64,000 nucleotides of DNA from a phage (PZ534534.1), one strand, 5' to 3'. Positions 13,627-39,158 are shown, numbered from the stretch's first letter. Program-made: numbers and translations. The notes: generated by a model from the letters alone, not told the origin.

Positions 13627-14670
13627 TTATTTAACGTGTTTGAAAATACCTGCCAACTCGGTCATTGTCATGCGGGTGGTCTTCATAAGATCTGTCATAG
13701 CTTTCTCCATAATTGGAGATACTACCATAAAGTTTCCTTTAGTGAAACCTTTATTCCAGTCGGTCACCAACAGGGGTTTAAGTCCAGCTCCAAGACGTTC
13801 ACCAGTTAAAGCACAGCATTTGCGAATATACGAACTCTTAAATTGGCTGAATGACAGATCAACTTTCATACCTACATCGTAGAACGTTTGACAATAGAAA
13901 GTGTAAGCTTTGGCAATCTCAACATCATCAGGTAGTGCAGGAACCTCTTCTGTAAGCTCCTCTTCGACCTCCTGAGTCTCTTTTTCCTCTTCATGCACCT
14001 GTTGCGTCATTTCTTCAATCTCTTCTGTGATAGGCTCGTTTACAATGTCGGAAATGTGCTTCTTGGGTGCACGATAAGTAACTTTAGACATCGGTAGCAT
14101 ATCTTCCTCCTCTTCTTCGTCAAAGAGTGCTAGTTTATCCTCTTCCGTTCCATATTGCAAGATGAAATCTTCAAAAGTATAATCACCTTTCAATTTCTCC
14201 ATACGCTCTTCGCTCAGGTGGAGCATCATCTGCTGGACAATTTTTCGATCAGTTTCGTCTTTAATCAAGACTGCAGTCTTTTTATCTACCAGACAGTCCT
14301 TTAGAGAGTTGCATCTCAATCCCACCACACAACAGTTATCAGCCGCATAAGGACCTTCATCATCTATCCGCTCCAGAGATGGGTAGAAAGGATTCCCCAG
14401 CCCGTTTTCATCTGTGTGCATGTCAAAAGGTATAAGGGTATAGTCGCATACTCCATCTCCTAAAAGTTTTTTACCAAATAGGAGGTATTCTTCCCATGAC
14501 AGGTCGAACTCTATATCTCGTTTCCGTGCGTTATTCTGTTTGCGTCTATATTTTTTGAGCAAGCGCTCTAACTCTTCTGGTGTATAATATTTTTCAAGAT
14601 TCATGAGTCGTCTCTCGTGCTCTGTAAGTGAAGAAATCGTATCAATTGTCTCAACAGATGTCAACATCAA
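13627..14670 (-). CDS. putative His-Me finger (HNH-like) endonuclease-domain protein with acidic C-terminal extension
   Basis: N-terminal region ...GDGVCDYTLIPF...SLERIDDEGPYAADNCCVVGLRCNSLKD resembles the DRID-type HNH pattern; Glu-rich middle; internal ATG preceded by GAGGAGG lies in a 29-bp inverted repeat shared with gene 15935..16291. Confidence 0.4.
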   Translation of the reverse strand: MMLTSVETIDTISSLTEHERRLMNLEKYYTPEELERLLKKYRRKQNNARKRDIEFDLSWEEYLLFGKKLLGDGVCDYTLIPFDMHTDENGLGNPFYPSLERIDDEGPYAADNCCVVGLRCNSLKDCLVDKKTAVLIKDETDRKIVQQMMLHLSEERMEKLKGDYTFEDFILQYGTEEDKLALFDEEEEEDMLPMSKVTYRAPKKHISDIVNEPITEEIEEMTQQVHEEEKETQEVEEELTEEVPALPDDVEIAKAYTFYCQTFYDVGMKVDLSFSQFKSSYIRKCCALTGERLGAGLKPLLVTDWNKGFTKGNFMVVSPIMEKAMTDLMKTTRMTMTELAGIFKHVK

Positions 14671-14677
14671 AAACGTG

Positions 14678-14706
14678 TTGACTTTACTCTAACTCCACAA
14701 TATAGT
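14678..14706 (+). promoter_or_regulatory. sigma70-type promoter (TTGACT-17-TATAGT)
   Basis: Read directly in divergent intergenic region upstream of 14747 gene. Confidence 0.55.
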
Positions 14707-14746
14707 GCACCCATTCGAAAGAAAACTAACATAGGAGCACTTACTT

Positions 14747-15646
14747 ATGGCAAATCTTAACAGTTTTAGTACGCGGTGGAAACAGGACATAACAACCAAT
14801 CTTTCAGCTGGGGACATCCTTTCTGCAATTTACGAGGCTTTAGATGATAAAGCTACTTCAAAAGCGGTTTGTACCAACCCATTAATTCCTATAGTGATGA
14901 AGGTTATTGAGCGTAGATTGGTATCTGGGTCTGATAAGTGGACATATTTAGATAATGAAGGACACACCTATTCCAATGGGTATGTCGATATAAAAGTAGA
15001 ATACGCGGTATCATACCGCCGGAGCGGTTCTGTAACTTTCAACTTCTCTGGAGGTTTTCGATCTCTGGCTACCTCACCTTTTGTTTCCTCAGAGGAGAAG
15101 TATGAGCTGCCATTTCTTTGGATGATGGCTAACGCGACAGGAAAAACCCCCGTTAGCATCCGAGTAAAATACAACTACAACGGATCTAGTAAGATCTATG
15201 CCGAAAGTGTCTCAGCAAGTTTTTATTTTGTGATGGGGGATGGAATCCTCAAACATATAAAGATGTGCGATATGCATGATGTTATAAATGAAGTGACTGA
15301 TAAGAATGTTCTAGTGAAAGACCTCAACAATTTTTATACACCTGGAGACTATTACGTCAGCCGTCCGCTGTGCATCTTTAATGCCGCACACCCTCTAGGT
15401 GAGTATTTGATCGCCAATAGCGATATTGCCAATAACCGCTTCGAGGTAGCAAGAGTTCAGAATGAGGTATTGACATCTTGCAAGAGCGGTGATAAGTTTA
15501 CCGAAGAAGAGATGGGTGTTTTAGAAATGATGGGATATAAGTGTAGCCTTTGGGTAGATGAGGTGTTTAATGATTGCATCTATGGACAGGATATTTACCC
15601 ATTAAAGAAGTATACTGATACAAGTTTAATTTATGCGAGGGTTTGA
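14747..15646 (+). CDS. hypothetical protein (299 aa)
   Basis: ORF with GGAG RBS; first gene of long plus-strand block. Confidence 0.6.
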   Translation: MANLNSFSTRWKQDITTNLSAGDILSAIYEALDDKATSKAVCTNPLIPIVMKVIERRLVSGSDKWTYLDNEGHTYSNGYVDIKVEYAVSYRRSGSVTFNFSGGFRSLATSPFVSSEEKYELPFLWMMANATGKTPVSIRVKYNYNGSSKIYAESVSASFYFVMGDGILKHIKMCDMHDVINEVTDKNVLVKDLNNFYTPGDYYVSRPLCIFNAAHPLGEYLIANSDIANNRFEVARVQNEVLTSCKSGDKFTEEEMGVLEMMGYKCSLWVDEVFNDCIYGQDIYPLKKYTDTSLIYARV

Positions 15647-15921
15647 CTATGATGAAGGCATGTGGTAATGTATATTACGTCGGTGAACATGTTCAGGCAG
15701 ACAGTGTGTGGAAATCTATTAAGTCCACCACTGACGATGCCTTTCTGAGTGGACTATGTTTCCCCAATCCGGGAGACATCCTCCCTCATCCTGGAGATTT
15801 TGTTGTCAACAAGATGGACGGTTATACCGTGTGCCTGATGGTTGAAAAAATCTTTTTAGACACTAGACACAATCACCGTCTTGTGTTAAAATTTCAAGAA
15901 TGTAAAATGACAATTGCCTAA
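15643..15921 (+). CDS. hypothetical protein (92 aa)
   Basis: ORF overlapping upstream stop by 4 nt. Confidence 0.5.
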   Translation: MTMMKACGNVYYVGEHVQADSVWKSIKSTTDDAFLSGLCFPNPGDILPHPGDFVVNKMDGYTVCLMVEKIFLDTRHNHRLVLKFQECKMTIA

Positions 15922-15934
15922 GGAGACCTTACCG

Positions 15935-16291
15935 ATGTCTAAAGTTACTTATCGTGCAGCTATTTACTGCAATGAACACCCAATCAATAATGATGGTCAC
16001 TGCCTTTTTAAAGAAAATCAATTGGGCTGTATTGTCCTCCCTGATGAAGGGGAAGGTTATCTGATTGCATTGACAGGGTTTGAACCTAAGGCTCTGGAAG
16101 CCAATCTGGACTACCTGGTAGAAGAGGGTGCTGCAGACCTGGTTGCCAATGGCCTCTCCATAAGCCTTGACGAAGTAGAGCGCTTCATGGGCAATTACCG
16201 TGTAGTGCGTGAGTTTACTATCGAGGTGGAAACTCCCGAGTGGGGTAGCCATGAAACTAATGCCGAAGAAAAAGAAGAGGAGGTAGAATAA
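15935..16291 (+). CDS. hypothetical acidic protein (118 aa)
   Basis: ATG with AGGAGA RBS 8 nt upstream (track start 15914 is TTG in same frame); N-terminus MSKVTYRA lies in 29-bp inverted repeat. Confidence 0.5.
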   Translation: MSKVTYRAAIYCNEHPINNDGHCLFKENQLGCIVLPDEGEGYLIALTGFEPKALEANLDYLVEEGAADLVANGLSISLDEVERFMGNYRVVREFTIEVETPEWGSHETNAEEKEEEVE

Positions 16292-16548
16292 TGAAAGTGC
16301 AGATCTTGACTAATGCCGAGAAGATGTTTATTGAAGATACACCTTTTGAAGCTGGTGAGCTACAGTTCGTTTATTTTGTTGACTTAGATAAGGTGTTTCC
16401 TGCACTGAATCTAGGTTTGGATGAAGTTCCTCATAAGGTTTTGTGCCAAGTTGTTCGTGCCTTAGCGGCAGAGGGGGAGTTCCACACCCTTCAAGATGTC
16501 CAGACCTACGGGTATCTTGAACTACAACGAGAAGAAGAGGTGGACTGA
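16291..16548 (+). CDS. hypothetical protein (85 aa)
   Basis: ORF; ATGA overlap with upstream gene. Confidence 0.5.
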   Translation: MKVQILTNAEKMFIEDTPFEAGELQFVYFVDLDKVFPALNLGLDEVPHKVLCQVVRALAAEGEFHTLQDVQTYGYLELQREEEVD

Positions 16549-16550
16549 TA

Positions 16551-16931
16551 ATGGCTCAGTGGAAGACAACAGTTGACCTTCATGATCAGTGGTTAGGACG
16601 CATCACTGAAGACGGGAAGCTAGTGGAGTGGGACAATAAGCATGTTAGCGAGTTGGCAAGTATTGTGGCTGGCAAGTTACGCTCCAAGTTCCCTGAACAA
16701 CTGGATCCTGATAGTTCAAAGTTCGATCCTGAGTTAGAGGATGTTGTATACTACTTCGACACCGTTGATGACTACGACGCGTGGTTTGCAGCACGGGAGC
16801 TTTACCCACAAGGCTCTGCTATGCGCCAGATGGAAGAAGATTATCCTCCGTGTGAGCAATTCAATAGTGCAATGACTTGCCTCTATGATTGGGCAGATAA
16901 GAACCTTGTCTGGATTCGGACTGCATTTTAG
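16551..16931 (+). CDS. hypothetical protein (126 aa)
   Basis: ORF in array. Confidence 0.5.
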   Translation: MAQWKTTVDLHDQWLGRITEDGKLVEWDNKHVSELASIVAGKLRSKFPEQLDPDSSKFDPELEDVVYYFDTVDDYDAWFAARELYPQGSAMRQMEEDYPPCEQFNSAMTCLYDWADKNLVWIRTAF

Positions 16932-16975
16932 TGGGCAGGAATGGCGGCAAGGATGCTGCTTAAGGAGTAGTAGAG

Positions 16976-17245
16976 ATGTTATACCAGCAATATGAACTTC
17001 GTGCAGAAAAAGAGTTAAATTTTGACAAAGATATTCACAGATATTATTATGGGAAAGTTAGAGGGCAAGCAAGAAAGTGTACTCCAACACTCTTTTATGC
17101 CAGCAGACGACTAGCGCCAGAAGAGGCAACAGCAGAAAGGGTTGCGTACAACTGGAGAGTCACGTATGATATTGACAGATTCGATGTGATATCTGTTTTG
17201 GAAAACTTTGAAAACACTTACACACAAGTAGAGGACTTTTACTAA
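16976..17245 (+). CDS. hypothetical protein (89 aa)
   Basis: ORF; stop overlaps start of next gene. Confidence 0.5.
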   Translation: MLYQQYELRAEKELNFDKDIHRYYYGKVRGQARKCTPTLFYASRRLAPEEATAERVAYNWRVTYDIDRFDVISVLENFENTYTQVEDFY

Positions 17246-18429
17246 TGTCAAGAAACGTATTCGAAAGTGGTCAAATCACTGTCCGTGAGTTGCCAGCTAT
17301 TATTCAGTTTGCCCAACGTCATAGCCGATCTGTCCTAATTTTGGGACCAATGGGTGTGGGTAAAAGCCAGGTGATGAAGCAGATCGCTGATAATATGTTC
17401 GGTGAGCGAGATGACAACCTTGTTGACGTGCGACTGTCAGATAAAGATCCTGCCGACTTATCTGGGCTACCTATCCCTGTAGAAGCGGATGGAACTACAC
17501 GTACAGTGTTTGCAATTCCAGAATTTTGGCCTGCGGATCCTGACTGGAGCGGAATTATCTTTCTGGATGAGCTCACTCATGCAGATAACTACCTGCAAAA
17601 GGTTGCAATGCAAATTATGCTTGACCACAAGTGCGGCACCTATGCATTCCCTAAAGGTTCTGTTTTTGTGGCTGCGGGTAACCGTTCTACAGATGGTGCG
17701 GTTCTTTCGGCGCTCGAAGCCCCTCTGGCTAACCGTTTTATCATTGTAGAGGTTACAAGCAATGCAGAGGTGTTTATTGAGGACTACGCATTCCTCAACG
17801 GGGTTCACTCCTCTGTAATTGGGTATCTGAAAAGAGTTCCATCAGCTATTGATAATTATGAGGCTATGGCTGAGATTAATTGTCCATCTTTTGCCACACC
17901 ACGATCTTGGGTTGCTGCATCTGACATCTTGCACGATTTTGACAGCGGTATTATTTCTGACGCTATGGCCCGTGTTCTTCTACAAGGTGCTATTGGTCAC
18001 ACTGCAGCGGTAGAGATCTGGACTTACCACACCAAGAAACGTAATTTACCGGAAATCGGTCGGATTATGGCAGGTGGCTGCAAAGAATACGTAGGTCCTA
18101 AGCAGCCAGACATTTTGTGGATTCTTGGATCTGAAGGTTGTATCGCTATTCGCAATATGATGGAAAATGCAAGTATCTCAGACGAAGATCTTGTCAGCTG
18201 CGTGGCAAACTTCCTCGATTTCCTTTGGGAAAACTTCAAGGACGAGAACCGAGATTTTGTATTCTCAGTCTTTATGGCGATGATGAAACCTAATGCCTTA
18301 GGAAATGCCTTGCTTATCGGTAAAGGGCGTGACAAGATTGTTGCTCAGCTGATCAAAGCATACCCAAACCTGATGAAGATTGTAAAAGAGTTTGGTGAAG
18401 AGTTTAGCGCCATTTTGGCTAAAGCTTAA
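17245..18429 (+). CDS. MoxR-like AAA+ ATPase (AAA_5 type)
   Basis: Walker A LILGPMGVGKSQ and Walker B IIFLDELTHAD, then FVAAGNRSTDG arrangement typical of MoxR/CbbQ-type ATPases. Functional partner of vWA protein is inference. Confidence 0.65.
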   Translation: MSRNVFESGQITVRELPAIIQFAQRHSRSVLILGPMGVGKSQVMKQIADNMFGERDDNLVDVRLSDKDPADLSGLPIPVEADGTTRTVFAIPEFWPADPDWSGIIFLDELTHADNYLQKVAMQIMLDHKCGTYAFPKGSVFVAAGNRSTDGAVLSALEAPLANRFIIVEVTSNAEVFIEDYAFLNGVHSSVIGYLKRVPSAIDNYEAMAEINCPSFATPRSWVAASDILHDFDSGIISDAMARVLLQGAIGHTAAVEIWTYHTKKRNLPEIGRIMAGGCKEYVGPKQPDILWILGSEGCIAIRNMMENASISDEDLVSCVANFLDFLWENFKDENRDFVFSVFMAMMKPNALGNALLIGKGRDKIVAQLIKAYPNLMKIVKEFGEEFSAILAKA

Positions 18430-18439
18430 GGGGGGTTGT

Positions 18440-18820
18440 ATGGCTAAAGTAGGTAAGCGGGGAAACTACCTGGTGGTATTGACCGAGGAGCCGGAGAAGG
18501 AGTACGAATGCAGCTCCACTTGCGTGATCGATATCCGAGAAAAAGATGTAGATGAAGTCTGGTTTAAAATATTGGACGCTTGCGATAGCAGTGATTATTT
18601 CTTCATTTATGTCAACGATAAGGCTGGATTCTTCCATGACGACGGAGAGTTGCCGTATGAAATCTATGAACTTGTAGAGGCTTGCCATCGTGGAGATGCG
18701 GAGTTGTTTGGCCTACGGCTGAAAAGCGGTAAATTCTTCTATCAAGATGAGTGCATGAATCTTCATAACTTTGTAGAGGGAACTTGCAACGATGGAGAGA
18801 TTTTGGCACACTACGATTAA
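18440..18820 (+). CDS. hypothetical protein (126 aa)
   Basis: ATG with GGGGGG RBS (track start 18392 overlaps previous gene). Confidence 0.5.
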   Translation: MAKVGKRGNYLVVLTEEPEKEYECSSTCVIDIREKDVDEVWFKILDACDSSDYFFIYVNDKAGFFHDDGELPYEIYELVEACHRGDAELFGLRLKSGKFFYQDECMNLHNFVEGTCNDGEILAHYD

Positions 18821-18828
18821 TTTCTAAG

Positions 18829-18860
18829 ACCTCCCCCGCTTCGGCGGGGATTTTCTATTT
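18829..18860 (+). terminator. rho-independent terminator (UUCG tetraloop)
   Basis: CCCCGC-TTCG-GCGGGG hairpin followed by ATTTTCTATTT. Confidence 0.7.
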
Positions 18861-18869
18861 GGAGTCATT

Positions 18870-19370
18870 GTGAAAATTAAGATCTTTGCTATTATTTTGA
18901 GCGCACTTTTATCGCTGCCTGTTGTTGCAGCACCAAAACAAAAAGTATATCATACTTGCAAGCCATCAGATACTAAGGAAAACATTCTGGCATGCAATAT
19001 CTACAGGGAAGCTAGAGGAGATGGCACGATGGGTATGCTGGCATCTGGGTTTGCCACACTAAACAGGAAATCCCACCCTAAATACCCAGACACTATAAGA
19101 AAGATTGTCTACCAACCTAACCAGTTTTCGTGGACAAACCACGGCAAAACTTTTAAGGTGACAGAAAAAGATTCATGGGATCACGCTAAAAGTCTTGCAA
19201 AGATGCTTCTAAAGGTCTATAATAACAACCATGTTGCATACATGGCTATGGACATAACAGGTGGAGCAACACACTACCATACAACCAAAGTACGACCGAA
19301 ATGGGCAAAAAAGATGCAGAGGACAGCTCAATTCGGGAGCCATATCTACTACAAGGAGCGCAATAAATGA
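18870..19370 (+). CDS. secreted SleB-type cell-wall hydrolase (Hydrolase_2 family), candidate lysis enzyme
   Basis: GTG start after GGAG RBS; N-terminal signal peptide MKIKIFAIILSALLSLPVVAAP; EARGDG...LNRK...YPDTI...VYQPNQFSW matches conserved core of SleB-type hydrolases. Confidence 0.65.
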   Translation: MKIKIFAIILSALLSLPVVAAPKQKVYHTCKPSDTKENILACNIYREARGDGTMGMLASGFATLNRKSHPKYPDTIRKIVYQPNQFSWTNHGKTFKVTEKDSWDHAKSLAKMLLKVYNNNHVAYMAMDITGGATHYHTTKVRPKWAKKMQRTAQFGSHIYYKERNK

Positions 19371-21349: not shown

Positions 21350-21359
21350 GGAGACCAAG

Positions 21360-23935: not shown

Positions 23936-24273
23936 GTTTGTGGAGAAATATCGTTAACTACGTGTGTGGCAATCCGACTCCTGAAGAGAAGAATGTTGTG
24001 ATTCACGATTTTACTAAAAGATCTCGTGAAAAAGATCTACTGCTAACAAAGGTGACTGATAAAGATCCTGCAGTAGGAGACTGGGCAGGTTTTGCGTTTA
24101 CATCGGACAAATACACCTTTAACAAAGGTGACTACCTTGTTGTAGATTTTAACGAAGACATTGAGGGTGCTGGACCTTACTATCAAACCCTTATTGTTGC
24201 AGGGTGTGTTAATCTCTCTGCAGGCATGCACAGTTTGATTCTTTTTGAGCTTGACTCTGAAGACCTTGAGTAG
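23932..24273 (+). CDS. hypothetical protein (113 aa)
   Basis: ORF overlapping upstream stop. Confidence 0.5.
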   Translation: MSLWRNIVNYVCGNPTPEEKNVVIHDFTKRSREKDLLLTKVTDKDPAVGDWAGFAFTSDKYTFNKGDYLVVDFNEDIEGAGPYYQTLIVAGCVNLSAGMHSLILFELDSEDLE

Positions 24274-29756: not shown

Positions 29757-29814
29757 TGTTTAACAAAGAGTGGGAGGGGTAGTACAACCGCCTCCCCTTT
29801 AAGGAGAACACTTT

Positions 29815-30549
29815 ATGAACGAGTTCAGAGACCACTGTGTAGCCAACCACCTGTGGTCAGAGATACTGGAGTATGACGGTCAAAATCTTTTTTGGAAGAT
29901 AGACATTCTGGCAGGTAGCGGTGTAGGATATGTTAAAACTTCAGCAGGCTCCAGAGCTGACAAGGGGCAAGATGCTGATGGCAGGCCTGTAGTTAGTCTA
30001 GGAAAGCATTGCACTAAAGGTGCCCACGTCATAATCTGGGAAATGTTTAACGGCCCTGTACCGGAAGGGTATGAGGTTGACCACATCAAGGAGATAAGGG
30101 AAACAGGTGGTGTGGCTGATAACAGTATTCAAAATTTGCAACTACTCGAGCCCACAGATAACAAAAAGAAAAGTTGCAAGATACCTCGTAGCAACAACAA
30201 ATCTGGCAGGGTCGGGGTGCACTATTCTGAAGAAAGAGATGCATGGATAGCTCAAGGCACAGACTCTGTAGGGGAAAGGGTCTGGCTAGGCCAGTACAGA
30301 ACTTTTGAAGAGGCAGAGTGGGCAAGAAAGTTCTTCGAAGATAATGGTTTTTCGCACAAGAGTGGAAGAGCCGTGCAGTATAATAATACCAGCGGTTGCT
30401 CAGGGGTGAATTGGGATAAAACCCATGAAAGATGGGTAGCCAGAATTTATGTAGATGGTAAAAGGAAATGCCTTGGGTATTTCAAGAATAGGGACGATGC
30501 AATAGCTGCAAGAAAGAATGCTGAGAAGAAACAGGAGGGGACAGTATGA
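29815..30549 (+). CDS. HNH homing endonuclease with AP2 DNA-binding domains
   Basis: HNH core GYEVDHIKEIRETGGVADNSIQNLQLL; two AP2-like segments (GVHYSEERDAWIAQ..., GVNWDKTHERWVARIYVDGKRKCLGYFKNRDDAIAARKNAE). Free-standing between primase-helicase and DNA polymerase. Confidence 0.65.
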   Translation: MNEFRDHCVANHLWSEILEYDGQNLFWKIDILAGSGVGYVKTSAGSRADKGQDADGRPVVSLGKHCTKGAHVIIWEMFNGPVPEGYEVDHIKEIRETGGVADNSIQNLQLLEPTDNKKKSCKIPRSNNKSGRVGVHYSEERDAWIAQGTDSVGERVWLGQYRTFEEAEWARKFFEDNGFSHKSGRAVQYNNTSGCSGVNWDKTHERWVARIYVDGKRKCLGYFKNRDDAIAARKNAEKKQEGTV

Positions 30550-32969
30550 GTAATTGGTGCTTCGATCTGGAGGCCTCTGGGCTTTTGGAAGACCCAGATC
30601 TTTATTATCACTGCGGTCTGTTTAAAGAGCTGAATAAGAACCGTTTTATGCTGTTCCTTCCTCTAAATGACCGCACACACTACTCCGAGGAGGATATAGA
30701 AAAGGCCAAGAACTTCATTCTGGCAAAGAAAACTCTTTATAAAGATTTTGAAGTTCGCATAGCAGATTTTTCGGAGTTGGAAGGTTGGCTTACAGGCAAT
30801 TCCGACTGGTCACCAACAGCTTTGAACTGCCATAACTGCTACAGTTATGACTTTATGCTGATGGAAAGATTATCCGGTATTCATTTTGATATGTTCCGTG
30901 ATCCTAAATGCATGGGGACTATCAACGACCACCAGGTTAACCTGTTTGATACGTTGGCGATGAGTCGAATTTTGTGGCCTGATCGCCCTTTACCAAAAGG
31001 TTGTCCGGACTCTGTATTCAACCCGGTTACTAAGAAAATGCAGCCTGTTGGTCCTCACGGCCTTATGGCATGGGGCTACGCCCTTGGTAACCAGAAAGTT
31101 CAAATTGATGACTGGCGCGATCTTCCGTTGTGGAAGTATGTGGATCGTGTATTCGAGGACGTTATCATCCAGGAGCTGCTCTGGAAAGAGCTGGTAGCGG
31201 AATCAAAAGGTGTATTCTACGGCAAATCTGACATGCAGAACTTTATGTACGATCCTGCCAAAGAGAAGCCGAAAGGGTTCAAGAAGATCACCTGGAAGAA
31301 CGCATTACGCCGAGGCATGCTGCAGCACTTCCTGATGGAGCTGCAGGCCCGTCAGGGTGTGTATTTCGACATAGACGGGGCTATTGCTTTACGTGACCGC
31401 TGTGATGCGTGGATGAAAGAGATCGCTGATCGTGTTGAACCTCAACTTCCTTTAAAAGAGTTATCAATATCTCAGCGGCCTAAATTCCCTGAAAAGCCGT
31501 TCAACCAAGATGGGACAATTTCCAATAATGGCTGGAAATGGTTAAAAGATAAGCTTGGCTACCCTGTAGACATGAGCGCTTTAGAGTTCAAAGCCCCACC
31601 TAAGCGAGCATTTACCTCTACAGGAGATGTCAGTAAGATAGGGATAAAATGGTGTGAAGAGATGGGCTGCAAAGACCCCGATAAGATGGCTGATTTCTTG
31701 AGAGGCTATATTAAGGGCACCTCCACACCACAACCTTTACCTAAAGAGCTAATGGATCAGGCAATAAGTGATCTACAGCAGAAGCGAATGCCGGACTGCA
31801 AGATACCTATGAAAATCAGCAACCAGGACGACATTAAGCGATACCTGATCAGTGCTGGTTGGCTTCCGACAATGTGGAGAACTAAGGATGTAACTAAAGA
31901 CAGCAAGAAGAAAGCTCTACCTGATGCAGATGTTGATGCACGAGTATATGCATATATGGACGAGCTTTTAGAGTCAGAGTATTGTGACCTGATTATCAAC
32001 TTCTGGAACAAAACTGATGCTAAGTTCCAGACAACCGTGCACAAGTTCCGAAGCTTTCCTAACTCCGAAAGGATTAAAAAGGAAGTATTCGGGAAAATAC
32101 GTAGAAAAGCTAGGGCACTTATTACTTCTCCGCAACTGAAAGATACGTTTGGACACCTATGCCCGAATCTTGAAAAATTGAACGGAGAGATGGCTAAAGA
32201 TATCGTCTTGTGGTTATCATTGCGAAACCGCAGATCGGTCCTTGATCCAATCAAGGAGGATAAGGTTGATACTGGTCTTCTTAATCACCCACGTTTGAAG
32301 ATTGACCATAAGCTTCCTGCTAAAAGTTCTGGGTTAACAAACACTTCACGACAGAAACACAGTATTTGTGCAAACATGCCTAAACCATCTCCTAAAGTGG
32401 TTATGGGTAAAGAGATGCGTAGTCTGTGGGGTGTTCCTCCTGGATACTTTCAGATCGGTATTGACGGGTCCAACTTAGAGCAGCTTATCGGGGCTTGGGG
32501 TGCCTTTGAGTTCGACAACGGCTTGTATTATGATGTTGTAAGTAACGGGGACGCACACCAAAACAATGCTGAGGCATATACAAAAGTAGCAGGCAGAGAG
32601 GTGTCTCGTAACGACGGTAAACCTATCACGTATGGGGTTATGTACGGGGCACAAAAAGATAAAGTTGCAGATATGCTGGACATCTCTCCAGAGTTGGGAC
32701 AAAGGGTAATCGATGCACTTTGGGATGCCAACCCTGGTCTTAAGGGGCGTAAAGAGGATCTGGAGAAATTCTGGGAAGCAACGGGTAAGAAGTTTATCTA
32801 CTCTTTTGATGGTCATGCTATCTGGACCCGATCTAAACACTCTTTACTTAATGCATACCAACAGAATGGTGGTGCATCGCTGTGTGACTTAGTTGGGATA
32901 CTCATGCACCACCAAATGGTGAAGCGTGGGTGGTACGATGAAGGTGTCCGTCGTATTATCTATTACCAT
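30546..32969 (+). CDS. DNA polymerase, family A (T7 gp5-like), exon 1
   Basis: Exo I motif FDLEASGL at N-terminus; motif B RNDGKPITYGVMYG; FDGHAIWTRSKHSLLNAYQQNGGASLCDL parallels T7 gp5 segment before motif C; frame ends ...IIYYH then stop, inside motif C. Confidence 0.75.
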
Positions 32970-33812
32970 AAATAACATTGTGGCTTCATAGAGTGATCTA
33001 TGTCGAATAACCTCTTTAATTGACGGGAAAGCTAAGTTGACTTTTACACCTGAGTATGGTAAAAGCTCAATATGCTAATCCGCAGCGAAGACTAAAGGGG
33101 TGTAGTTAAAATGGCTAGAACAGCTGATTATCACGGGTATACCGTGTTTGATGATGGAACAATACCTTTATCGAAACGTGATCATACAACAATGTTTTGT
33201 TTTGATAATGGTAGAGGTTACCTTTGCGTAACCATGCTAATCGAGGGGAAGCAGTGCACAAAAGGTGTCCACCACCTGGTTGCTGAATGCTTTGTATCAA
33301 ACCCGGATCCTGAAAGGCTCACATGGGTGAACCATAAGGATGGGAATAAGTACAACAATGCATACTGGAACCTGGAATGGACCACCCCTGGTGGAAATAT
33401 CAAGCACGCCTATGATAATGACCTCAGAGTAAGGCCAGTTGGTGAGTATAATGCCAACGCTGTGCTGACAGAAGATGAGGTAATAGAGATTTGCGAACTG
33501 TTGCAGAGTGGTCTACGACAATGCGAGATTAGGGATCTTGGATATCCTTATGAGACCGTCAGGGCTATAAAGCAAAGAAGACAGTGGAAACATATCTCTA
33601 AAAACTACACCTGGTAGTAACGTTCAGAGACTATCGAAAGCATAGCTCCAACACAGGTTGGTGTGAAGAAGCGAGTAGAGTAGGCCAGCAAGTGCGGTCG
33701 AAATGGGAGGTGCCTTGTTACCAAGGCAGTGAGGTAGTCCGATCCATACAGGAAACTGTATGGCTATGCACGTAATGGTGCGGGGTAGCTTAACGACCTA
33801 CCTGAACAGATG
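32970..33812 (+). mobile_element. group I intron interrupting DNA polymerase motif C
   Basis: Exon 1 ends in T (cat), intron ends in G (...cagatg). Joined exons read YYH|DEYQLQV, restoring YHDE motif C. P7-like CAGAGACTA and TAGTCCGA segments lie downstream of internal ORF. Boundaries +/- a few nt. Confidence 0.6.
33111..33617 (+). CDS. intron-encoded HNH homing endonuclease
   Basis: VHHLVAECFVSNPDPERLTWVNHKDGNKYNNAYWNLEW is a typical HNH_3 signature; ORF lies inside the intron. Confidence 0.65.
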   Translation: MARTADYHGYTVFDDGTIPLSKRDHTTMFCFDNGRGYLCVTMLIEGKQCTKGVHHLVAECFVSNPDPERLTWVNHKDGNKYNNAYWNLEWTTPGGNIKHAYDNDLRVRPVGEYNANAVLTEDEVIEICELLQSGLRQCEIRDLGYPYETVRAIKQRRQWKHISKNYTW

Positions 33813-34166
33813 GATGAGTACCAACTTCAGGTCCCTGACACGCCTAAGTATAAGACTGTGTACACCTTCGACACAATTGAAGAATTGGAAGCATTTAAGG
33901 CAGAGCAGGAAGCCAAACTTCATGTGTTCGACGGTCATAAGTACAAAAAGGCACGCAAGGATGAGGACGGAAACGAAGTGGTTGACAGAGACGGAAACAC
34001 GGTGTACGATCCTATCCTGAACGATGACGGAAAGCTTGAACTTATCTGGAGCCCTGTGGGTGAAATGGTGGTGCATTGCTTCTGGCAAGCTTCTAAAATG
34101 ATGGGAGTCCCGTTCCAGATCACAGGTGAATACTTGTGTGGTCGTAATTGGGGTGATTGTCACTAA
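33813..34166 (+). CDS. DNA polymerase, family A, exon 2 (C-terminal motif C region)
   Basis: Begins DEYQLQV and ends ...GEYLCGRNWGDCH, parallel to T7 gp5 C-terminus ...GKMGPNWAICH; same frame as exon 1. Confidence 0.65.
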   Translation, partial: DEYQLQVPDTPKYKTVYTFDTIEELEAFKAEQEAKLHVFDGHKYKKARKDEDGNEVVDRDGNTVYDPILNDDGKLELIWSPVGEMVVHCFWQASKMMGVPFQITGEYLCGRNWGDCH

Positions 34167-34215
34167 TGTAAACTATCAACACATGGAAGTGTTGTTGAGC
34201 AAAGAGGAGACTTTT

Positions 34216-34500
34216 ATGGTAGTAGAACCAACAAAAACATTTACATCCATGACTATTCCTGTTATTATGCAGGTGGAGTGTGTTCAGGTATCTCAAGTGT
34301 GGCCTGGCACCAAAATCCCAACAGGGCCTGATTTCTTTCAGGTTGGGAAAGTGTACAATGTCTGGAAGGCACCAGATTGTTACCCTTTCATTAAAGATGA
34401 CCGTGGAATGTTGTGGTATCTTGGAAATGATTTGACACTGCACCTTGGGAATGCTATTATTGCAGTATTCAGACTTAACAAGAAGGAGACCGATCAATGA
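34216..34500 (+). CDS. hypothetical small protein, paralog family 1
   Basis: ATG after AAGAGGAG RBS (track start 34126 would overlap polymerase exon 2). C-terminus FFQVGKVYNVWKAP...GMLWYLG shared with next two genes. Confidence 0.5.
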   Translation: MVVEPTKTFTSMTIPVIMQVECVQVSQVWPGTKIPTGPDFFQVGKVYNVWKAPDCYPFIKDDRGMLWYLGNDLTLHLGNAIIAVFRLNKKETDQ

Positions 34501-34724
34501 CAACTTTGGTTAAAGCTACTTTTGTAGAAGAAAAGATGACAGACCTGTCCTTCTTTAAAGAAGGAAAGACCTACGAGGTTTATTACGATAAAGATCGTGC
34601 AAACAAGATGATTAAAGACGAGGAAGGGATTGCCTGGTTTATCTCCCATCTGGCAAACGGTGAGTATCATATCTACGGAACCACCCTGCTTGCCAAGTTT
34701 GTAGCTGTTGAAGAGGACCTATGA
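34497..34724 (+). CDS. hypothetical small protein, paralog family 1
   Basis: FFKEGKTYEVYYD...EEGIAWFISH...YHIYGTTLLAKF pattern shared with neighbours. Confidence 0.5.
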   Translation: MTTLVKATFVEEKMTDLSFFKEGKTYEVYYDKDRANKMIKDEEGIAWFISHLANGEYHIYGTTLLAKFVAVEEDL

Positions 34725-34915
34725 AAGTAAAGTATCTGGCTGAGGGTATGAGTAGGTATTTCACCCTTGGTGAAGAATATTGGCCCTTTACAAGCAACGG
34801 CGATGTCTACGTGAAAGATAATTTCGGCACTCCGTGGTTTCTGCACTCTAATGGGCTGGGATACTCCATTTACTGTGGTGCAGTGAACAACACAACCCTT
34901 GCAGAGTTCGTTTAG
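34721..34915 (+). CDS. hypothetical small protein, paralog family 1
   Basis: YFTLGEEYWPF...FGTPWFLHSNG...YSIYCGAV pattern shared with neighbours. Confidence 0.5.
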   Translation: MKVKYLAEGMSRYFTLGEEYWPFTSNGDVYVKDNFGTPWFLHSNGLGYSIYCGAVNNTTLAEFV

Positions 34916-34925
34916 AGGAGGTAGA

Positions 34926-35297
34926 ATGTTAGTAAAAGGTACCCACACAGTCAAACAACGTATCGAAGTTGAGATCGATGACTGTGAGCTGAAGCATATT
35001 TTACGATCATGCTCCAACGTTTTGCTCCTCAGTATTCTCCAGGAGCGAGTGGAGAACGAGTTCTTAAATGCACTGGCAGGCCGCCCTGGTGACTTCTGTG
35101 TGCGTAAGCGTGGTGACAACAAGTCATGGCTGTGGGAGATAGACGCAGAATGGGATTACCACAAAAATGAGGGTATAGATGAGCCTATTCGTGAATTGAC
35201 AGACAAAGAGGTTCAGACGTACAATGAAGTTTGTCATTGGGCAACACGCCAACAAATTTACCTCGACCCTGTGTGGCTGATTGAAAATAGTCATTGA
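34926..35297 (+). CDS. hypothetical protein (123 aa)
   Basis: ATG after GAGGAGG RBS (track start 34899 upstream in same frame). Confidence 0.5.
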   Translation: MLVKGTHTVKQRIEVEIDDCELKHILRSCSNVLLLSILQERVENEFLNALAGRPGDFCVRKRGDNKSWLWEIDAEWDYHKNEGIDEPIRELTDKEVQTYNEVCHWATRQQIYLDPVWLIENSH

Positions 35298-35322
35298 CAA
35301 GAAGTAAGATTAGATATAAGAT
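35294..35322 (+). promoter_or_regulatory. sigma70-type promoter (TTGACA-17-TAAGAT)
   Basis: Read directly upstream of 35374 gene. Confidence 0.5.
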
Positions 35323-35373
35323 GCTTCACACAAACAGAGAGTTGATTTTTAAATAATTGAGGAGACTGCTAAA

Positions 35374-35628
35374 ATGAAAATCATGTTGAAACCAGCATGC
35401 GTTGCAAATGACCGAGCTTTTAAAGATTGCACGCTTGGTGCTATTTATGAAGCAGAGTTTTGTGAGAACCCTTTAGTAAAAGCCCTTTTGGAAGAAGGGG
35501 CTCCTTTATCACAAGAAGAGATTGATGAGCTGGAAAACTCAGCCCAGTGCCTTACCTTTAAAGATGATGAAGGAGATTCTGTCTGGTGCACCGTTAACGA
35601 AGTGGTTTTTGTAAAACCTGAACATTAA
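35374..35628 (+). CDS. hypothetical small protein, paralog family 2
   Basis: KP..AFKDCT...DDEGDSVWCT pattern shared with 35692 gene. Confidence 0.55.
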   Translation: MKIMLKPACVANDRAFKDCTLGAIYEAEFCENPLVKALLEEGAPLSQEEIDELENSAQCLTFKDDEGDSVWCTVNEVVFVKPEH

Positions 35629-35631
35629 TAC

Positions 35632-35660
35632 TTGACAAGAAAGATGGGGCCAGATATAAT
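35632..35660 (+). promoter_or_regulatory. consensus sigma70 promoter (TTGACA-17-TATAAT) with -10 embedded in GATGGGGCC/GGCCCCATC palindrome
   Basis: Perfect -35 and -10 hexamers with 17-bp spacer read directly; inverted repeat brackets the -10. Confidence 0.65.
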
Positions 35661-35691
35661 GGCCCCATCTAAGAAAAAGGAGACCATAGCA

Positions 35692-35952
35692 ATGACCAAA
35701 CAATATCAACGAATTAAAGCCAAGGTTAAGCCAGACTATCTGGAGAAGGACTCCGCTTTTCGGGACTGCACAGCTGACAAAGTTTACACAGGGGCCGTCC
35801 TGTTGAACGATAAACTTGAAGTAGATGTGCTGGGTAAAGAGGCCGTTATCGAGGATGACAACGGTGACTGTGTTTTCTGCACCACACGGGAGCTAGAAGT
35901 CTTAGAATACTTCGGTGAAATCTTCAACTCCTTAGACGACGAGGAAGCGTGA
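35692..35952 (+). CDS. hypothetical small protein, paralog family 2
   Basis: ATG after AAGGAG RBS; KPDYLEKDSAFRDCT...DDNGDCVFCT pattern. Confidence 0.55.
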   Translation: MTKQYQRIKAKVKPDYLEKDSAFRDCTADKVYTGAVLLNDKLEVDVLGKEAVIEDDNGDCVFCTTRELEVLEYFGEIFNSLDDEEA

Positions 35953-36341
35953 TGAAAAATATTTGGGATATTGATATCTTTGAAGCCTCTAAGCTTGACG
36001 GTGCTGATGGAGTTATTATGGTGTCTGATGGCAAGGCAACACTAACTTCCGGAGATATCATCTATGACTTGGACGAGCTGGCGCTTCTGAAATCTACCGG
36101 TAACACTTTAGAGGAGCGTCTTCAAGGCTTCGCCTTCAAAGAAGGCACAAATACCGCCATGATGTGCACCACACGGACAGTTCAGGTTGGTAACGGTGTC
36201 TATATGATCATTGCTGTGTGTCCTAAATTCAGCAACGTCAATAAAGATGATGCTGACGCTGTCAACGATGTGGTTGTTCTCTTCGTGGGTGACGCTATGG
36301 CAGATCTGATGAATGCAGGAGAAGCAGCAAATGAAGACTGA
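35949..36341 (+). CDS. hypothetical protein (130 aa)
   Basis: ORF overlapping upstream stop. Confidence 0.5.
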   Translation: MMKNIWDIDIFEASKLDGADGVIMVSDGKATLTSGDIIYDLDELALLKSTGNTLEERLQGFAFKEGTNTAMMCTTRTVQVGNGVYMIIAVCPKFSNVNKDDADAVNDVVVLFVGDAMADLMNAGEAANED

Positions 36342-36633
36342 AAACATCACCCCAGCAGGGTTTTTAAAAGTATACCGTGAACTGCTATATACTACAGAGG
36401 ACAGTGTTCTAGAGTATCCAGAATATCTTTTGCTGTATAAGTATCTGCAGGAGGCTGGTGAAAATCTGCCAGTTAGTGCAGAAGGTGGTCCAAACTGGAT
36501 ATACAGCGCATGGAGAAAGGTTGACATTCTCCCAGACCCAGGTAAAGATATGGTAGTTTGGCAGCTTATCAACAACATCGGGATTCCAATCTTTGATGAA
36601 GCTGTTAAAATCTATTTTGAACTTGACGATTAA
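36331..36633 (+). CDS. hypothetical protein (100 aa)
   Basis: ATG after AGGAGA RBS; 11-nt overlap with upstream gene. Confidence 0.45.
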   Translation: MKTENITPAGFLKVYRELLYTTEDSVLEYPEYLLLYKYLQEAGENLPVSAEGGPNWIYSAWRKVDILPDPGKDMVVWQLINNIGIPIFDEAVKIYFELDD

Positions 36634-36650
36634 TATCAGGAGACCTTAAG

Positions 36651-36896
36651 ATGGCTGAAGCAGTTGCTCGCGCAGGACAGAAAGTACGTTGTGTGGAAGT
36701 AGGTTTTGGTGGCAAAGGGTGTCAAAACTTGACTCAAGGTAAGGAATACGCTGTTATTTCTGGTGGTGGCGACGAGAGTATTGTGTTCGAGGACCACATC
36801 CTGGATGCTGAAAACTTTGAAATCTTTGACGACGATGGGGATCCGATCACCTGCCTGCTAGACGGGAATTGGGGAACTTTTGAAGTGATTGGCTAA
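36651..36896 (+). CDS. hypothetical small protein (81 aa)
   Basis: GGAG RBS; DDDGDPITC motif loosely related to family 2. Confidence 0.5.
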   Translation: MAEAVARAGQKVRCVEVGFGGKGCQNLTQGKEYAVISGGGDESIVFEDHILDAENFEIFDDDGDPITCLLDGNWGTFEVIG

Positions 36897-36979
36897 CAAA
36901 TACCTATTGTAATTTGCAGAAGGGGATGCTAAAATAGTGTCTCCTTCTATGTTGTTCAAATAAAATCGGAGATTCCATA

Positions 36980-37345
36980 ATGGAACAAATGAACGATCAA
37001 ACGTCGGTTGCAATGAACGAGCAAGAACAACCTCAAGAATTTTTCTTAGGGTTAAGTAAAGATCAAGTGTCTCTTTTGCTAGTGCTTTCTTCTTTCATGG
37101 GAAGACTTCAGGAGCTCACACAACAACCGGAGGCTGAACAATTATTTCAGGCTCTGCGTGAAGAAGAAAAATATCGTCGTTTGGACTATGCCTTAGGTTG
37201 GGTAGCTCAACAACGAGATATGCTAATGGCCCTCTCTGGGACTACAAGTTTTGCAATGGGGCTGTTGGCTCAAGTTCAGGACAAATTAATTCAAGCAGGG
37301 TTTGCACATACGGCAAACACTAACGAAGAACAAGGAGACAAATAA
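36980..37345 (+). CDS. hypothetical protein (121 aa)
   Basis: GGAG RBS; Gln-rich. Confidence 0.5.
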   Translation: MEQMNDQTSVAMNEQEQPQEFFLGLSKDQVSLLLVLSSFMGRLQELTQQPEAEQLFQALREEEKYRRLDYALGWVAQQRDMLMALSGTTSFAMGLLAQVQDKLIQAGFAHTANTNEEQGDK

Positions 37346-38571
37346 TGAGCGTTATTCAACAATTCGCTAACCCGATGAATCCGCGTGAAACTGTTTTACT
37401 GGCTCACGGCATGATTAAACGTGTCAGCATCAAGCCTATCAAAGGTGCTGATCCTACAACAGGTATTAAAACCACTGTGTGGCAAGGTAAGAAAATTGAA
37501 TCCAGCCACACCATCTCTTTACTGATTTCTGAACTGGATTCCTCTGATAACCTGCTTCAAGGTGGTGAAGAAGTTTGGATCAGCATGGGTGATAAGCTGC
37601 TTAAACCTGGTCATCAAGACTCTGTCTCTGTTAAAATTGATGACAAGTGGGAAACCGTAACGCCGGGATGGATCGTAAATATCCCTTTGAAGGCAAACGA
37701 GCATAACGGTAAGACCTATTACAAAGGCTCACTGGCTAAGATGGTCAAGCTGGGTGCAGGAGAGGCTCCAGCAGCGACTCAGCAGCAAAAACAGCAACAA
37801 GGTGCACAATCACAAGGCCAGAAGCAGAAACCTCAGCAGAATGCCAATCAGGACGTTTTACGCATCTATGGCGATGTGACTCAGATTGTTGGCAACGTGG
37901 TTACTGTTAATGACCACAAGATTGGCGAAGGTGCTATGGTTGTAACTGATGAGCAGCTTAAAGACCTGGTGGTAGGTGGTCGTGTTGCAGCCATTGTTGA
38001 CAAAGACACCGGAAACATTATCAGTGGTTTCAAAGCCTATCCCCCTAAGGCAGAGAACGGCACTCAAGGCTCTGGTGGCAAGCGTAAATCCTCTTACGAC
38101 CCTATTGGTGTGGAGACGGGACATAGCATCAACGCGTTGCAAATCATCCTGGATCGCGGGTTTAAGGTAGACGACCCACTAGGTGTGGCTAAAACACTGC
38201 ACGTAGTCACCATTGAGCTTAAGAAAGAGTATGCTCAAGCCACCAACCGAACCGAAGATGAAGTAGGTGCCAGTGTCGGTAATGCGGTGTTGAACGCTTG
38301 TCGCCGTATTGACAAGAAAACGAAAGTTGAGGATTTTGCAGCGGCAATTACTGCAGAAGCAAAAGATGTCTTGACTAATCTGGCTGAGCCGTTGTACGAT
38401 TGGATCAAGAACGGTGCTGGGTCCACTGACCATCAAGAACCTCAAGCTGCCAAGCAGGAAGCTGCTCCACAGCAAAACACTATAGACGCTCCTCCTGTAA
38501 ATGATGAGGAAGATGACCCGATGGATCAGAATCCGGCGCAGTATGAGTTCGATGACTCGATCCCTTTCTAA
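37345..38571 (+). CDS. putative ssDNA-binding protein with SSB-type acidic C-terminal tail
   Basis: Ends ...YEFDDSIPF, mimicking bacterial SSB C-terminal tip DDDIPF; Gln/Gly-rich linker QQQKQQQGAQSQGQKQKPQQ; location in replication module. OB fold not verified. Confidence 0.45.
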   Translation: MSVIQQFANPMNPRETVLLAHGMIKRVSIKPIKGADPTTGIKTTVWQGKKIESSHTISLLISELDSSDNLLQGGEEVWISMGDKLLKPGHQDSVSVKIDDKWETVTPGWIVNIPLKANEHNGKTYYKGSLAKMVKLGAGEAPAATQQQKQQQGAQSQGQKQKPQQNANQDVLRIYGDVTQIVGNVVTVNDHKIGEGAMVVTDEQLKDLVVGGRVAAIVDKDTGNIISGFKAYPPKAENGTQGSGGKRKSSYDPIGVETGHSINALQIILDRGFKVDDPLGVAKTLHVVTIELKKEYAQATNRTEDEVGASVGNAVLNACRRIDKKTKVEDFAAAITAEAKDVLTNLAEPLYDWIKNGAGSTDHQEPQAAKQEAAPQQNTIDAPPVNDEEDDPMDQNPAQYEFDDSIPF

Positions 38572-38579
38572 GGTCAGTT

Positions 38580-39158
38580 ATGAAATGCAAACGTTGTGGG
38601 GAGGACAAGGAGGCCTCCGACTTCTATACCAGCAACAAATCAACGTGCAAAGAGTGCTGTAAGAAGGCCAGCAGGGAGGCTGACCAATTTGCTAAAGACT
38701 CTTCAGAAAAAGGTGTAATACGTGTGTTGTACAAGACTCAAAAGTGCAACAGCAAGCAAAGAGGTCACCCTCCTCCGACTTACACCAAAAAAGAGTTTAA
38801 GGAGTGGCTATACCTGAACGGTTACAAAGAGTTGTATGATCAGTGGGTAGCCAGCGGATACGACAAAAGGAAAAAGCCTTCTTGTGACAGGATAGATGAT
38901 TTCAAAGGGTACTCTTTTGATAATATCCGTTTAACGACCTGGGGAGAAAATAAAGACAAGCAGACAGAGGATATTTTGTTACATAGAAGCACCAGCGGTA
39001 GACGGTGCAAAAATGTAAGGAGGTTGGACATGAATGGCAACGTTCTTAAAGAGTGGGTATCCCACAACTCTTGCAGCAGAGAAACCGGAATATATGTTGG
39101 TTACTACATTCATGAAAAAATTCCAGCTCCCGATGGATACCTCTATGAATACTTCTAA
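38580..39158 (+). CDS. putative endonuclease-like protein with N-terminal zinc ribbon
   Basis: N-terminal CxxC...CxxC (CKRCGED...CKECCKK); CDRIDDFKGYSFDNIRL resembles DRID-type His-Me finger motif. Weak. Confidence 0.35.
   Translation: MKCKRCGEDKEASDFYTSNKSTCKECCKKASREADQFAKDSSEKGVIRVLYKTQKCNSKQRGHPPPTYTKKEFKEWLYLNGYKELYDQWVASGYDKRKKPSCDRIDDFKGYSFDNIRLTTWGENKDKQTEDILLHRSTSGRRCKNVRRLDMNGNVLKEWVSHNSCSRETGIYVGYYIHEKIPAPDGYLYEYF

Follow-up and report, generated by a model that had tools for sequence, protein, structure and literature searches.

Three apparently mobile endonuclease genes and one core Srd-like gene in an rV5-like coliphage

Are the endonuclease-like genes in and around the replication region of a large coliphage all mobile, or is one of them a core gene with another role? 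The question is raised by a stretch of phage DNA of 64,000 nucleotides (nt) (PZ534534.1; hereafter the window, with positions counted from its first letter), which an earlier note described as carrying four homing endonuclease-like genes clustered around replication genes: a free-standing AP2-HNH gene (29815-30549), an HNH gene inside an intron (33111-33617) and two genes for proteins with a DRID motif (13627-14670 and 38580-39158). It is textbook knowledge that phage replication genes can harbour HNH endonucleases, both free-standing and within introns, and large lytic phages commonly have homing endonuclease genes as well as introns in their polymerase genes. All four open reading frames (ORFs) are present at these positions. 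Three of the genes are mobile, and the fourth, at 13627-14604, is a core gene; the overall picture that we consider likely is of three selfish mobile elements and a fixed Srd-like core gene with a shared fold.

The window derives from an rV5-like coliphage. It is ~96% identical to Vequintavirus genomes, and the 12.5 kilobases (kb) around the polymerase gene match 128 phage records, nearly all of them Escherichia Vequintavirus (rV5-like myoviruses), the best match being phage WalterGehring (96.5% over the full length). In a comparison of the whole 64 kb with phage nomine, in which insertions of more than 300 base pairs (bp) were considered, the sole window-specific insertions were of 735 bp (29810-30544), 843 bp (32970-33812) and 609 bp (38544-39152), which correspond to the AP2-HNH gene, the intron and the second DRID gene. 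The AP2-HNH gene is present in 10 of the 118 relatives that match its site, the intron with its ORF in 31 of 119, and the second DRID gene (38580-39158) in 51 of 116. By contrast, all 118 relatives matching the site of the first DRID gene have it, in the same genomic context, and nomine is 99.9% identical to the window around it. Comparison with relatives lacking the insertions, as the earlier note had advised, therefore gives precise empty sites for three genes and none for 13627-14604; likewise, the clustering of homing endonucleases around replication genes that it proposed holds for the AP2-HNH gene, the intron HNH gene and 38580-39158, but not for 13627-14670.

The three mobile elements, which cluster around the primase/helicase and polymerase genes, behave as homing elements, because their distribution is sporadic, their insertions are precise and short tracts in their flanks are linked to their presence. 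These three features are as predicted for homing. Each enzyme would cut or nick the allele of a co-infecting relative without the element; repair from the element-bearing genome would then copy the element together with a short flanking tract, and the substitutions in the copied tract would probably protect the carrier against its own enzyme. The flank-tract associations come from small samples, of 8-10 genomes per site.

In the annotation of WalterGehring, the four genes appear as 'anti-sigma factor' and, three times, 'putative homing endonuclease', with 'DNA polymerase' as a two-piece join. WalterGehring is the only one of the 128 records to match the whole 12.5-kb region in one piece, so that it alone likely holds all three mobile elements, which puts the endonuclease load of the window, in this region, towards the upper end.

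The AP2-HNH ORF matches Pfam HNH_3 well above the cut-off (5.2e-12; 45.7 bits, cut-off 24.8), also contains AP2 domains and has the canonical catalytic His. The insertion that carries it lies between the ribosome-binding site and the ATG of the polymerase gene, where nomine has 4 bp in place of the 735 bp. In phages without the AP2-HNH gene the polymerase ATG is preceded by AAGGAGAAC-TGTAT and the 5' end of the polymerase gene reads ATGAGTATGTGGTCTTTCGATTTTGAGTCATCC...; in the window, the AP2-HNH ORF begins where the polymerase ATG would be, behind the same ribosome-binding site, and the insertion supplies a new AGGAGG for the polymerase, the ATG of which overlaps the AP2-HNH stop codon TGA. 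The endonuclease gene would in this way use the polymerase's ribosome-binding site and give the polymerase a new one. The first nucleotides of the polymerase gene form the linked tract at this site: one version is found in four phages with the AP2-HNH gene and another in three without it, while ECML-10, also without it, is intermediate. The features of the site are:

29810-30544 (735 bp; ORF 29815-30549), plus strand: insertion with a free-standing AP2-HNH homing endonuclease gene, assigned from its absence from nomine, its Pfam matches and its presence in 10 of 118 relatives
30546-30592, plus strand: substitution tract in the first ~45 nt of the polymerase gene, linked to the presence of the AP2-HNH gene

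Free-standing HNH homing endonucleases of other phages (both the I-HmuI-like and the rare PacI-like enzymes of Skunavirus (PMC12724721), and HNH-AP2 enzymes) resemble the window genes in their intergenic insertion beside conserved genes, their sporadic distribution and their linked flank polymorphism, and the HNH_3 plus AP2 architecture is the same. There is no substantive difference; the window genes add further members, with new sites in another phage genus. Between the primase/helicase gene and the ribosome-binding site of the AP2-HNH gene lies a G+C-rich hairpin with TTT after it (GGGAGGGG-N10-CCTCCCC-TTT, 29771-29800); phages with and without the AP2-HNH gene both keep this hairpin, which resembles a terminator or an element for RNA processing or stability.

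The second insertion interrupts the DNA polymerase gene itself, which is organised as follows:

30546-32969, plus strand: DNA polymerase (family A) exon 1, with matches to Pfam DNA_pol_A and phrog_17, colinear with the uninterrupted nomine gene
32970-33812, plus strand: group I intron of 843 nt, defined by its exact absence from nomine and by Rfam Intron_gpI
33111-33617, plus strand: intron-encoded I-HmuI-like HNH endonuclease of 168 residues, assigned by phrog_59 and PDB entry 1u3e
33813-34166, plus strand: DNA polymerase exon 2, defined by comparison with the intron-less allele

Exon 1 ends in T (32969) and the intron in G (33812), and joining 32969 to 33813 gives a polymerase of 925 residues, the length of nomine's, with the same residues across the junction (...RRIIYYH|DEYQLQ). 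The intron splits the polymerase codons at Y-Y-H | D-E-Y; the HDE at this site is catalytic motif C of family A polymerases, which would place the intron in the most conserved part of the gene. The window intron matches the whole length of the Rfam model Intron_gpI (RF00028), with a score of 29.4 bits (E 2.8e-5) that stays below the gathering score (50) because the intron ORF sits inside the matched region as a large insertion. At the gathering threshold Rfam found nothing in the whole window, and the intron was recognised only through a permissive search and an ORF-less relative. The latter is phage MaxTheCat, which has a third allele at the same polymerase site: an intron of ~270 nt without an endonuclease ORF, which scores above the gathering threshold (64.7 bits, E 3.8e-16) and in which (1761-1996 of the examined record) 75 nt replace 649 nt of the window (33030-33678). 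Intron-less, ORF-less-intron and ORF-bearing alleles thus coexist in one genus. Over its first 30 nt, exon 2 shares 77% identity with the intron-less allele, compared with 97-100% further on, and the changes inspected, those within the first 21 nt, are all synonymous.

The intron ORF matches Pfam HNH_3 below the cut-off (E 0.0028, 17.7 bits) and phrog_59 at 1.5e-36, and has the canonical His (VNHKDGNKYNN...N). It matches I-HmuI (PDB 1u3e), an intron-encoded HNH nicking endonuclease, at 3e-05, with residues 36-100 of I-HmuI aligned, including the catalytic DH...N...N motif. I-HmuI comes from the DNA polymerase gene of Bacillus phage SPO1. The genes of both proteins reside in group I introns that interrupt DNA polymerase genes of phages. 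The window protein differs in belonging to a different phage group and host, in having a C-terminal DNA-binding part without detectable sequence similarity to that of I-HmuI, and in its insertion at the HDE of a T7-like family A polymerase. The homing element here would be the combination of a self-splicing group I intron at Y-Y-H|D-E-Y with the I-HmuI-like HNH endonuclease that it carries.

Some annotations around the intron can also be accounted for. An ORF of 86 residues at 33760-34020 (plus strand) matches phrog_31536 (unknown function) at 2.4e-55; it runs from the 3' end of the intron into exon 2 in a frame that differs from that of the polymerase, so that phrog_31536 was probably built from mis-called ORFs. 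A 'DNA polymerase' ORF of 118 residues (33810-34166, plus strand) takes the last three bases of the intron as its start ATG, which explains why many records have two polymerase coding sequences rather than a join. In the more distant phage Av-05 (NC_025830), 78362-79361 is 72% identical to part of the intron/endonuclease region and is annotated with an 'HNH homing endonuclease' and two polymerase coding sequences, which suggests that the same intron occurs outside the genus Vequintavirus.

The third mobile gene encodes a free-standing DRID protein of 192 residues, with the following features:

38572-39158 (~590 bp; ORF 38580-39158, 192 residues), plus strand: insertion with a free-standing PacI-type endonuclease gene, labelled 'endonuclease VII' in relatives
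38544-38571, plus strand: substitution tract in the last 28 nt of the upstream gene, linked to the presence of the PacI-type gene
38586-38657, plus strand: N-terminal CxxC...CxxC zinc-ribbon-like segment (C3, C6, C23, C26), which aligns with the PacI N terminus
38886-38951, plus strand: active-site-type motif D103-R104-I-D ... Y111 ... N115 ... N124, from conservation and PacI alignment
39006-39155, plus strand: predicted C-terminal NUMOD-like helix-turn-helix DNA-binding module

The gene comes immediately after the stop codon of its upstream neighbour, whose final 28 nt exist in one version in four phages with the standard gene, in another, close-knit version in five phages without it, and in a third version in rV5. 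The empty site (10395-10425 of the examined record) reads ...TTTTTAA|CATCTAGTTAAC..., with an inverted repeat, TTAAC-N5-GTTAA, that spans the insertion point and is a lead to the target rather than evidence for it; the empty junction of nomine (~75,860-75,960) is ...CCCTTTTTAA|CATCTAGTTAACATAG. The occupied allele has TTCTAA at both ends of the insert (38565-38580 and 39150-39175), and its downstream junction is one base off the empty site (TCTAAC compared with TTTAAC); this may represent the target and its immunity change. A longer PacI-type gene of 207 residues is present in rV5 (DQ832317; 439-1062 of the examined record), where it begins within the final part of the upstream gene and has a junction unlike that in the window.

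The AlphaFold model of the 192-residue protein is of high quality (predicted local distance difference test score, pLDDT, 92), and a search of the PDB with the profile of its family reached PacI at 1.8e-4 and I-HmuI at 5.2e-4. The zinc-ribbon-like segment aligns to PacI residues 2-30 and the DRID motif to VDRSD..GY..N...CN of PacI. In 40 homologs, down to 31% identity, D103, R104, Y111 and N124 are invariant, and C3, C6, C23 and C26 are conserved in at least 90%. For some homologs, NUMOD-type Pfam matches are already on record, and the name given to one by its source is NUMOD1 DNA-binding protein. In the enzyme, a zinc ribbon would be followed by a PacI-type His-Me finger and then by a NUMOD-like helix-turn-helix; its general-base His being replaced by Arg, the conserved loop Tyr would take over that role, with the conserved Asp and Asn holding the metal, as in PacI.

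What kind of domain do the two DRID proteins share? Searches with HNH families, which the earlier note had proposed, recognise the AP2-HNH protein through HNH_3 and the intron HNH protein through phrog_59; the DRID pair is reached only through PHROG. Neither DRID protein matches a Pfam family at E up to 0.1 or an NCBIfam family at E up to 0.01, and ten relatives, including T4 Srd, have no HNH-type Pfam match. Read literally, these two databases return the outcome that the earlier note had named as telling against its reading, namely no HNH profile hits; both ORFs, nevertheless, match PHROG families labelled HNH endonuclease and endonuclease VII, the first ORF also matches T4 Srd, and a fold search leads to PacI. 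What is missing is thus the family model, not the fold. The beta-beta-alpha core is present in both proteins and the best structural match of each is the HNH restriction enzyme PacI, which bears out the His-Me-finger-like segment that had been proposed for them. When compared with hhalign, the two motif segments, as families, match at 86% (E 5e-6) and, with a broader Srd-class profile, at 96.8% (E 2.7e-10).

PacI is described as an HNH enzyme without the His, in which a loop Tyr is placed as the base and an Asp and an Asn hold the metal (PMC4081073, PMC5714182). In both DRID proteins an Arg (R104, R79) occupies the position of the catalytic His, as it does in all 142 motif-selected family domains aligned. 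The loop Tyr, an Asp or Glu, and an Asn stand at the base and metal-ligand positions (D103/Y111/N124 and E78/Y86/N99), are invariant and align with the D-R...Y...N of PacI. On the modelled structures, the DRID domain is a His-Me finger of the PacI-type, histidine-less variety. R.PacI (3ldy/3m7k) is a bacterial restriction enzyme of 142 residues with two Cys4 zinc sites, acting as a homodimer on TTAATTAA. In terms of Cys residues, neither phage protein has the complete second zinc site: the 192-residue protein has one CxxC...CxxC set, and the 325-residue product of the first DRID gene keeps only C53 of the second. Compared with R.PacI, the 192-residue protein adds the NUMOD-like DNA-binding tail and behaves as the product of a mobile gene, whereas the 325-residue protein has in addition a helical region, an acidic linker and a second, dead copy of the domain, and is encoded by a core gene.

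An exhaustive search with the N-domain of the 325-residue protein gave 388 cluster representatives at E up to 1e-3; among the best 148 of these, 134 contain (D/E)R-x-(D/N/E)...Y...N. In the 142 motif-bearing domains aligned, a Cys before the first strand (C53) is present in every one and a second Asn (N99) in 141. The family comprises an 'ERID' class, in which the domain is at the N terminus of proteins of ~230-345 residues and which includes T4 Srd and the 13627-14604 protein, and a 'DRID' class of shorter or tandem proteins; throughout the Srd class the first metal-ligand position is Glu, not Asp. Among predicted viral structures (BFVD), the top matches are phage 'anti-sigma factor' proteins, named with the label that T4 Srd itself has; they come from several phages, those of Aeromonas, Morganella and Proteus among them. 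Giant-virus proteins named 'HNH endonuclease' or 'Zn-finger' rank next. The PacI group (His-Me finger group 20, without a Pfam family) is described as made up mostly of giant-virus proteins (PMC5714182, Jablonska et al. 2017). On this evidence the Srd family belongs to a large PacI-type domain family that lacks a curated model, with its active-site-type motif intact. A search of the available literature found no published link between Srd and the HNH or His-Me fold, the matching papers mentioning each term just once.

The motif is specific within the window. Among 488 six-frame ORFs of at least 50 residues, a regular expression for (D/E)R-x-D...Y...N matches solely the 13627-14670 and 38580-39158 ORFs, and a profile built from the 142 family domains likewise matches only these two (E 1.3e-38 and 3.8e-08), which argues that the DRID motif is not due to chance. 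No (D/E)RID or HNH genes beyond the four were found in six frames by regular expression, family hidden Markov model and phmmer.

The remaining gene, the first of the DRID pair, is organised thus:

13627-14604, minus strand: core gene for an Srd-like protein of 325 residues (ortholog of rV5 gp11, 'anti-sigma factor')
14299-14373, minus strand: N-domain active-site-type motif E78-R79-I-D81 ... Y86 ... N90 ... N99 ... K102, from its invariance
13936-14109, minus strand: acidic linker, residues 166-223, Glu-rich and predicted to be disordered (pLDDT <50)
13630-13935, minus strand: degenerate second domain copy, residues 224-325, from BLASTP and the family profile
14636-14664, minus strand: sigma70-like promoter (TTGACA-17-TACGAT, TG-extended) upstream of ATG 14604, from a consensus scan only
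14678-14706, plus strand: divergent promoter-like site, from a consensus scan only

The ORF as described in the earlier note starts at a TTG at 14670; the promoter (14664 to 14636, minus strand) lies inside that extension, and many database homologs, as well as the annotation of WalterGehring, have 325 residues, so that the gene probably starts at ATG 14604. As the first gene behind a sigma70-like promoter in a divergent promoter region, it fits an early gene. The 325-residue protein matches phrog_1400 at 1.9e-10 and phrog_4592 at 3.7e-15, and its residues 8-143 align with T4 Srd (NP_049634; BLASTP 2e-7 over 143 residues). The genome paper of rV5 had already called gp11 an Srd homolog by PSI-BLAST (PMC3606486), which is the source of the 'anti-sigma factor' label. 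The N-domain motif does not vary among 13 Vequintavirinae homologs, nor among 30 Srd-class domains, of which T4 Srd is one. In the second copy, L-V-T-D replaces E-R-I-D, F replaces Y86 and E replaces N99, so that the Arg, Tyr, Glu and second Asn are lost; this copy is related to the N-domain of T4 Srd by BLASTP at 1e-3 and to the family profile with a domain i-E of 0.054.

T4 Srd, a 'postulated decoy of sigma factors' and RNase E activator, offers a functional precedent: its residues 4-133 align with the N-terminal ~135 residues of the core protein, and both carry S-L-E-R-x-D..G-Y..G-N...N. The two differ in that identity is 24%, that Srd has neither acidic linker nor second domain, and that the C-terminal half of Srd is unrelated in sequence. 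T4 Srd, the only member for which this function is known, is reported to bind the N-terminal, catalytic half of RNase E and to speed host mRNA decay (Qi 2015, via PMC4980113, PMC7430671 and PMC13232886). By homology and from its early-type promoter, 13627-14604 most likely encodes an Srd-like host-takeover protein; it is not a homing endonuclease. Its product would use the PacI-type domain as a scaffold, in which an N-domain with all the invariant residues is followed by a helical extension, an acidic disordered linker and a degenerate copy; it would take part in host takeover early in infection, and could bind RNase E and speed host mRNA decay, as T4 Srd does.

Several other explanations have to be set against this assignment of three homing elements and one core gene. 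That all four genes, 13627-14670 included, are homing endonucleases, as first proposed, has in its favour the fold and motif that the core protein shares with that of the mobile 38580-39158 gene, and the name 'HNH endonuclease' given to it by PHROG and in some RefSeq records; it is nonetheless very improbable, being largely refuted by the distribution of the gene, which sits at the same place in all 118 relatives. Moreover, in a 161-kb Salmonella phage, where the protein is only 40% identical, the gene keeps its neighbour, the same DUF2201 metallopeptidase-like gene; the protein has no DNA-binding NUMOD or AP2 module, and the gene is the first behind an early-type promoter. It is possible, though rather unlikely, that the core protein is itself an active nuclease or nickase that, for example, degrades host nucleic acid, with E78/R79/Y86/N99 serving as the D/R/Y/N of PacI and the dead C-domain as a pseudo-dimer partner; an active-like domain joined to a dead copy recalls a PacI dimer reduced to a single site. 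T4 Srd, by contrast, is described as binding and stimulating RNase E, with no nuclease activity ascribed to it in those accounts (PMC4980113, PMC7430671), the Srd class has Glu rather than Asp at the first metal-ligand position, and the conservation of the N-domain could instead serve the binding of nucleic acid or protein. A broader proposal, that the T4 Srd family is a branch of the Pfam-less PacI-type family and that Srd-like proteins, including the Vequintavirus core protein, are nucleases or nickases or grip nucleic acid via this site, we hold as tentative and on balance doubtful; were Srd-like proteins catalytic, their own activity would account for some of the host shut-off that is credited to them.

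Instead of homing, the product of the 38580-39158 gene could serve, in the manner of a restriction enzyme, to attack rival phages or the DNA of the host, or it could have lost the ability to cut and still bind DNA. The closest solved relative of this protein is indeed a restriction enzyme, and in a Skunavirus marker-exclusion assay that included a PacI-like enzyme, clear effects are reported for two I-HmuI-like enzymes only and not for the PacI-like one (PMC12724721). Against this stand the sporadic presence of the gene at a single, exact intergenic position, with a tract in its flank that goes along with it, a C-terminal NUMOD-like module typical of homing endonucleases and active-site-type residues that are invariant down to 31% identity; we regard this alternative as quite unlikely. 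Scarcely credible is an endonuclease VII-type Holliday-junction resolvase, as the gene is labelled in rV5 and many relatives and as the name of phrog_1035 ('endonuclease VII') would have it; the endonuclease VII family and fold are not the best match, the fold is PacI-type and the label is rejected. The reading of three homing elements and an Srd-like core gene has weaknesses of its own, to which the Skunavirus result may be added. From the observed sequence and fold relationships, distribution, insertion boundaries and flank tracts, we infer cleavage, splicing, homing and a possible interaction with RNase E. The flank associations come from the few genomes given above for each site, with ECML-10 intermediate at one and a third version in rV5 at another, and the window intron is below the Rfam gathering threshold (29.4 compared with 50 bits). 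The link of the Srd class to PacI derives from predicted structure and profile-profile similarity: PDB sequence searches with the Srd-like protein as a single sequence, a family profile and a 30-member Srd-class profile gave only chance-level matches and did not reach PacI. The core protein is 24% identical to T4 Srd over 143 residues, with differing C-terminal halves, and the similarity is confined to the shared domain and the helix that follows it; in the literature found, RNase E binding is not mapped to that domain of T4 Srd. Finally, the N-domain keeps every active-site-type residue, which leaves room for a catalytic role.

The finding is real, had been well interpreted in part and is already known in kind and in instance: the four genes have been deposited and annotated in many near-identical genomes, and the Srd homology is published. 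Its significance for the window itself is little. A catalogue of lactococcal phage endonucleases already includes free-standing PacI-like ones (PMC12724721). What the present analysis adds is the separation of the three mobile elements from the core gene, the precise positions of the insertions with their linked flank tracts, the three-allele polymerase site, a corrected 'endonuclease VII' label and the placing of the Srd family in a PacI-type domain family. The (D/E)RID...GY...N domain, for which Pfam and NCBIfam hold no model, links mobile phage endonucleases, giant-virus PacI-like proteins and T4 Srd, and the family provides a concrete structural hypothesis for how Srd-like host-takeover proteins may work. 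With three alleles at the polymerase site and clean empty sites, the genus is a convenient natural system for measuring homing.

With respect to labels, 'HNH endonuclease' as a functional name for the Srd-like gene implies a mobile enzyme, which its distribution rules out. 'Endonuclease VII' for 38580-39158 is unsupported, as is, by Pfam, 'HNH endonuclease' for the gene at 12133-13614 (minus strand). The latter matches phrog_1314 'HNH endonuclease' at 8.9e-123 and is named 'HNH endonuclease' in FV3 in RefSeq; in Pfam it has a DUF2201_N metallopeptidase domain (2.3e-28) and a DUF2201 VWA-like domain, and no HNH. The label looks like an annotation carry-over from the neighbouring gene. A gene for a MoxR-type ATPase lies nearby, at 17245-18429.

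No tRNA genes were found in the window. Sixteen GenBank records (MG0656xx) titled 'Campylobacter phage', with Campylobacter jejuni as the stated host, are 93-97% identical to this E. coli Vequintavirus region, and their host label looks doubtful. Further differences between the window and nomine are 278 bp present only in the window (52522-52799), a replaced segment of ~120 bp (window 43626-43748) and 349 bp present only in nomine (nomine 86593-86941).

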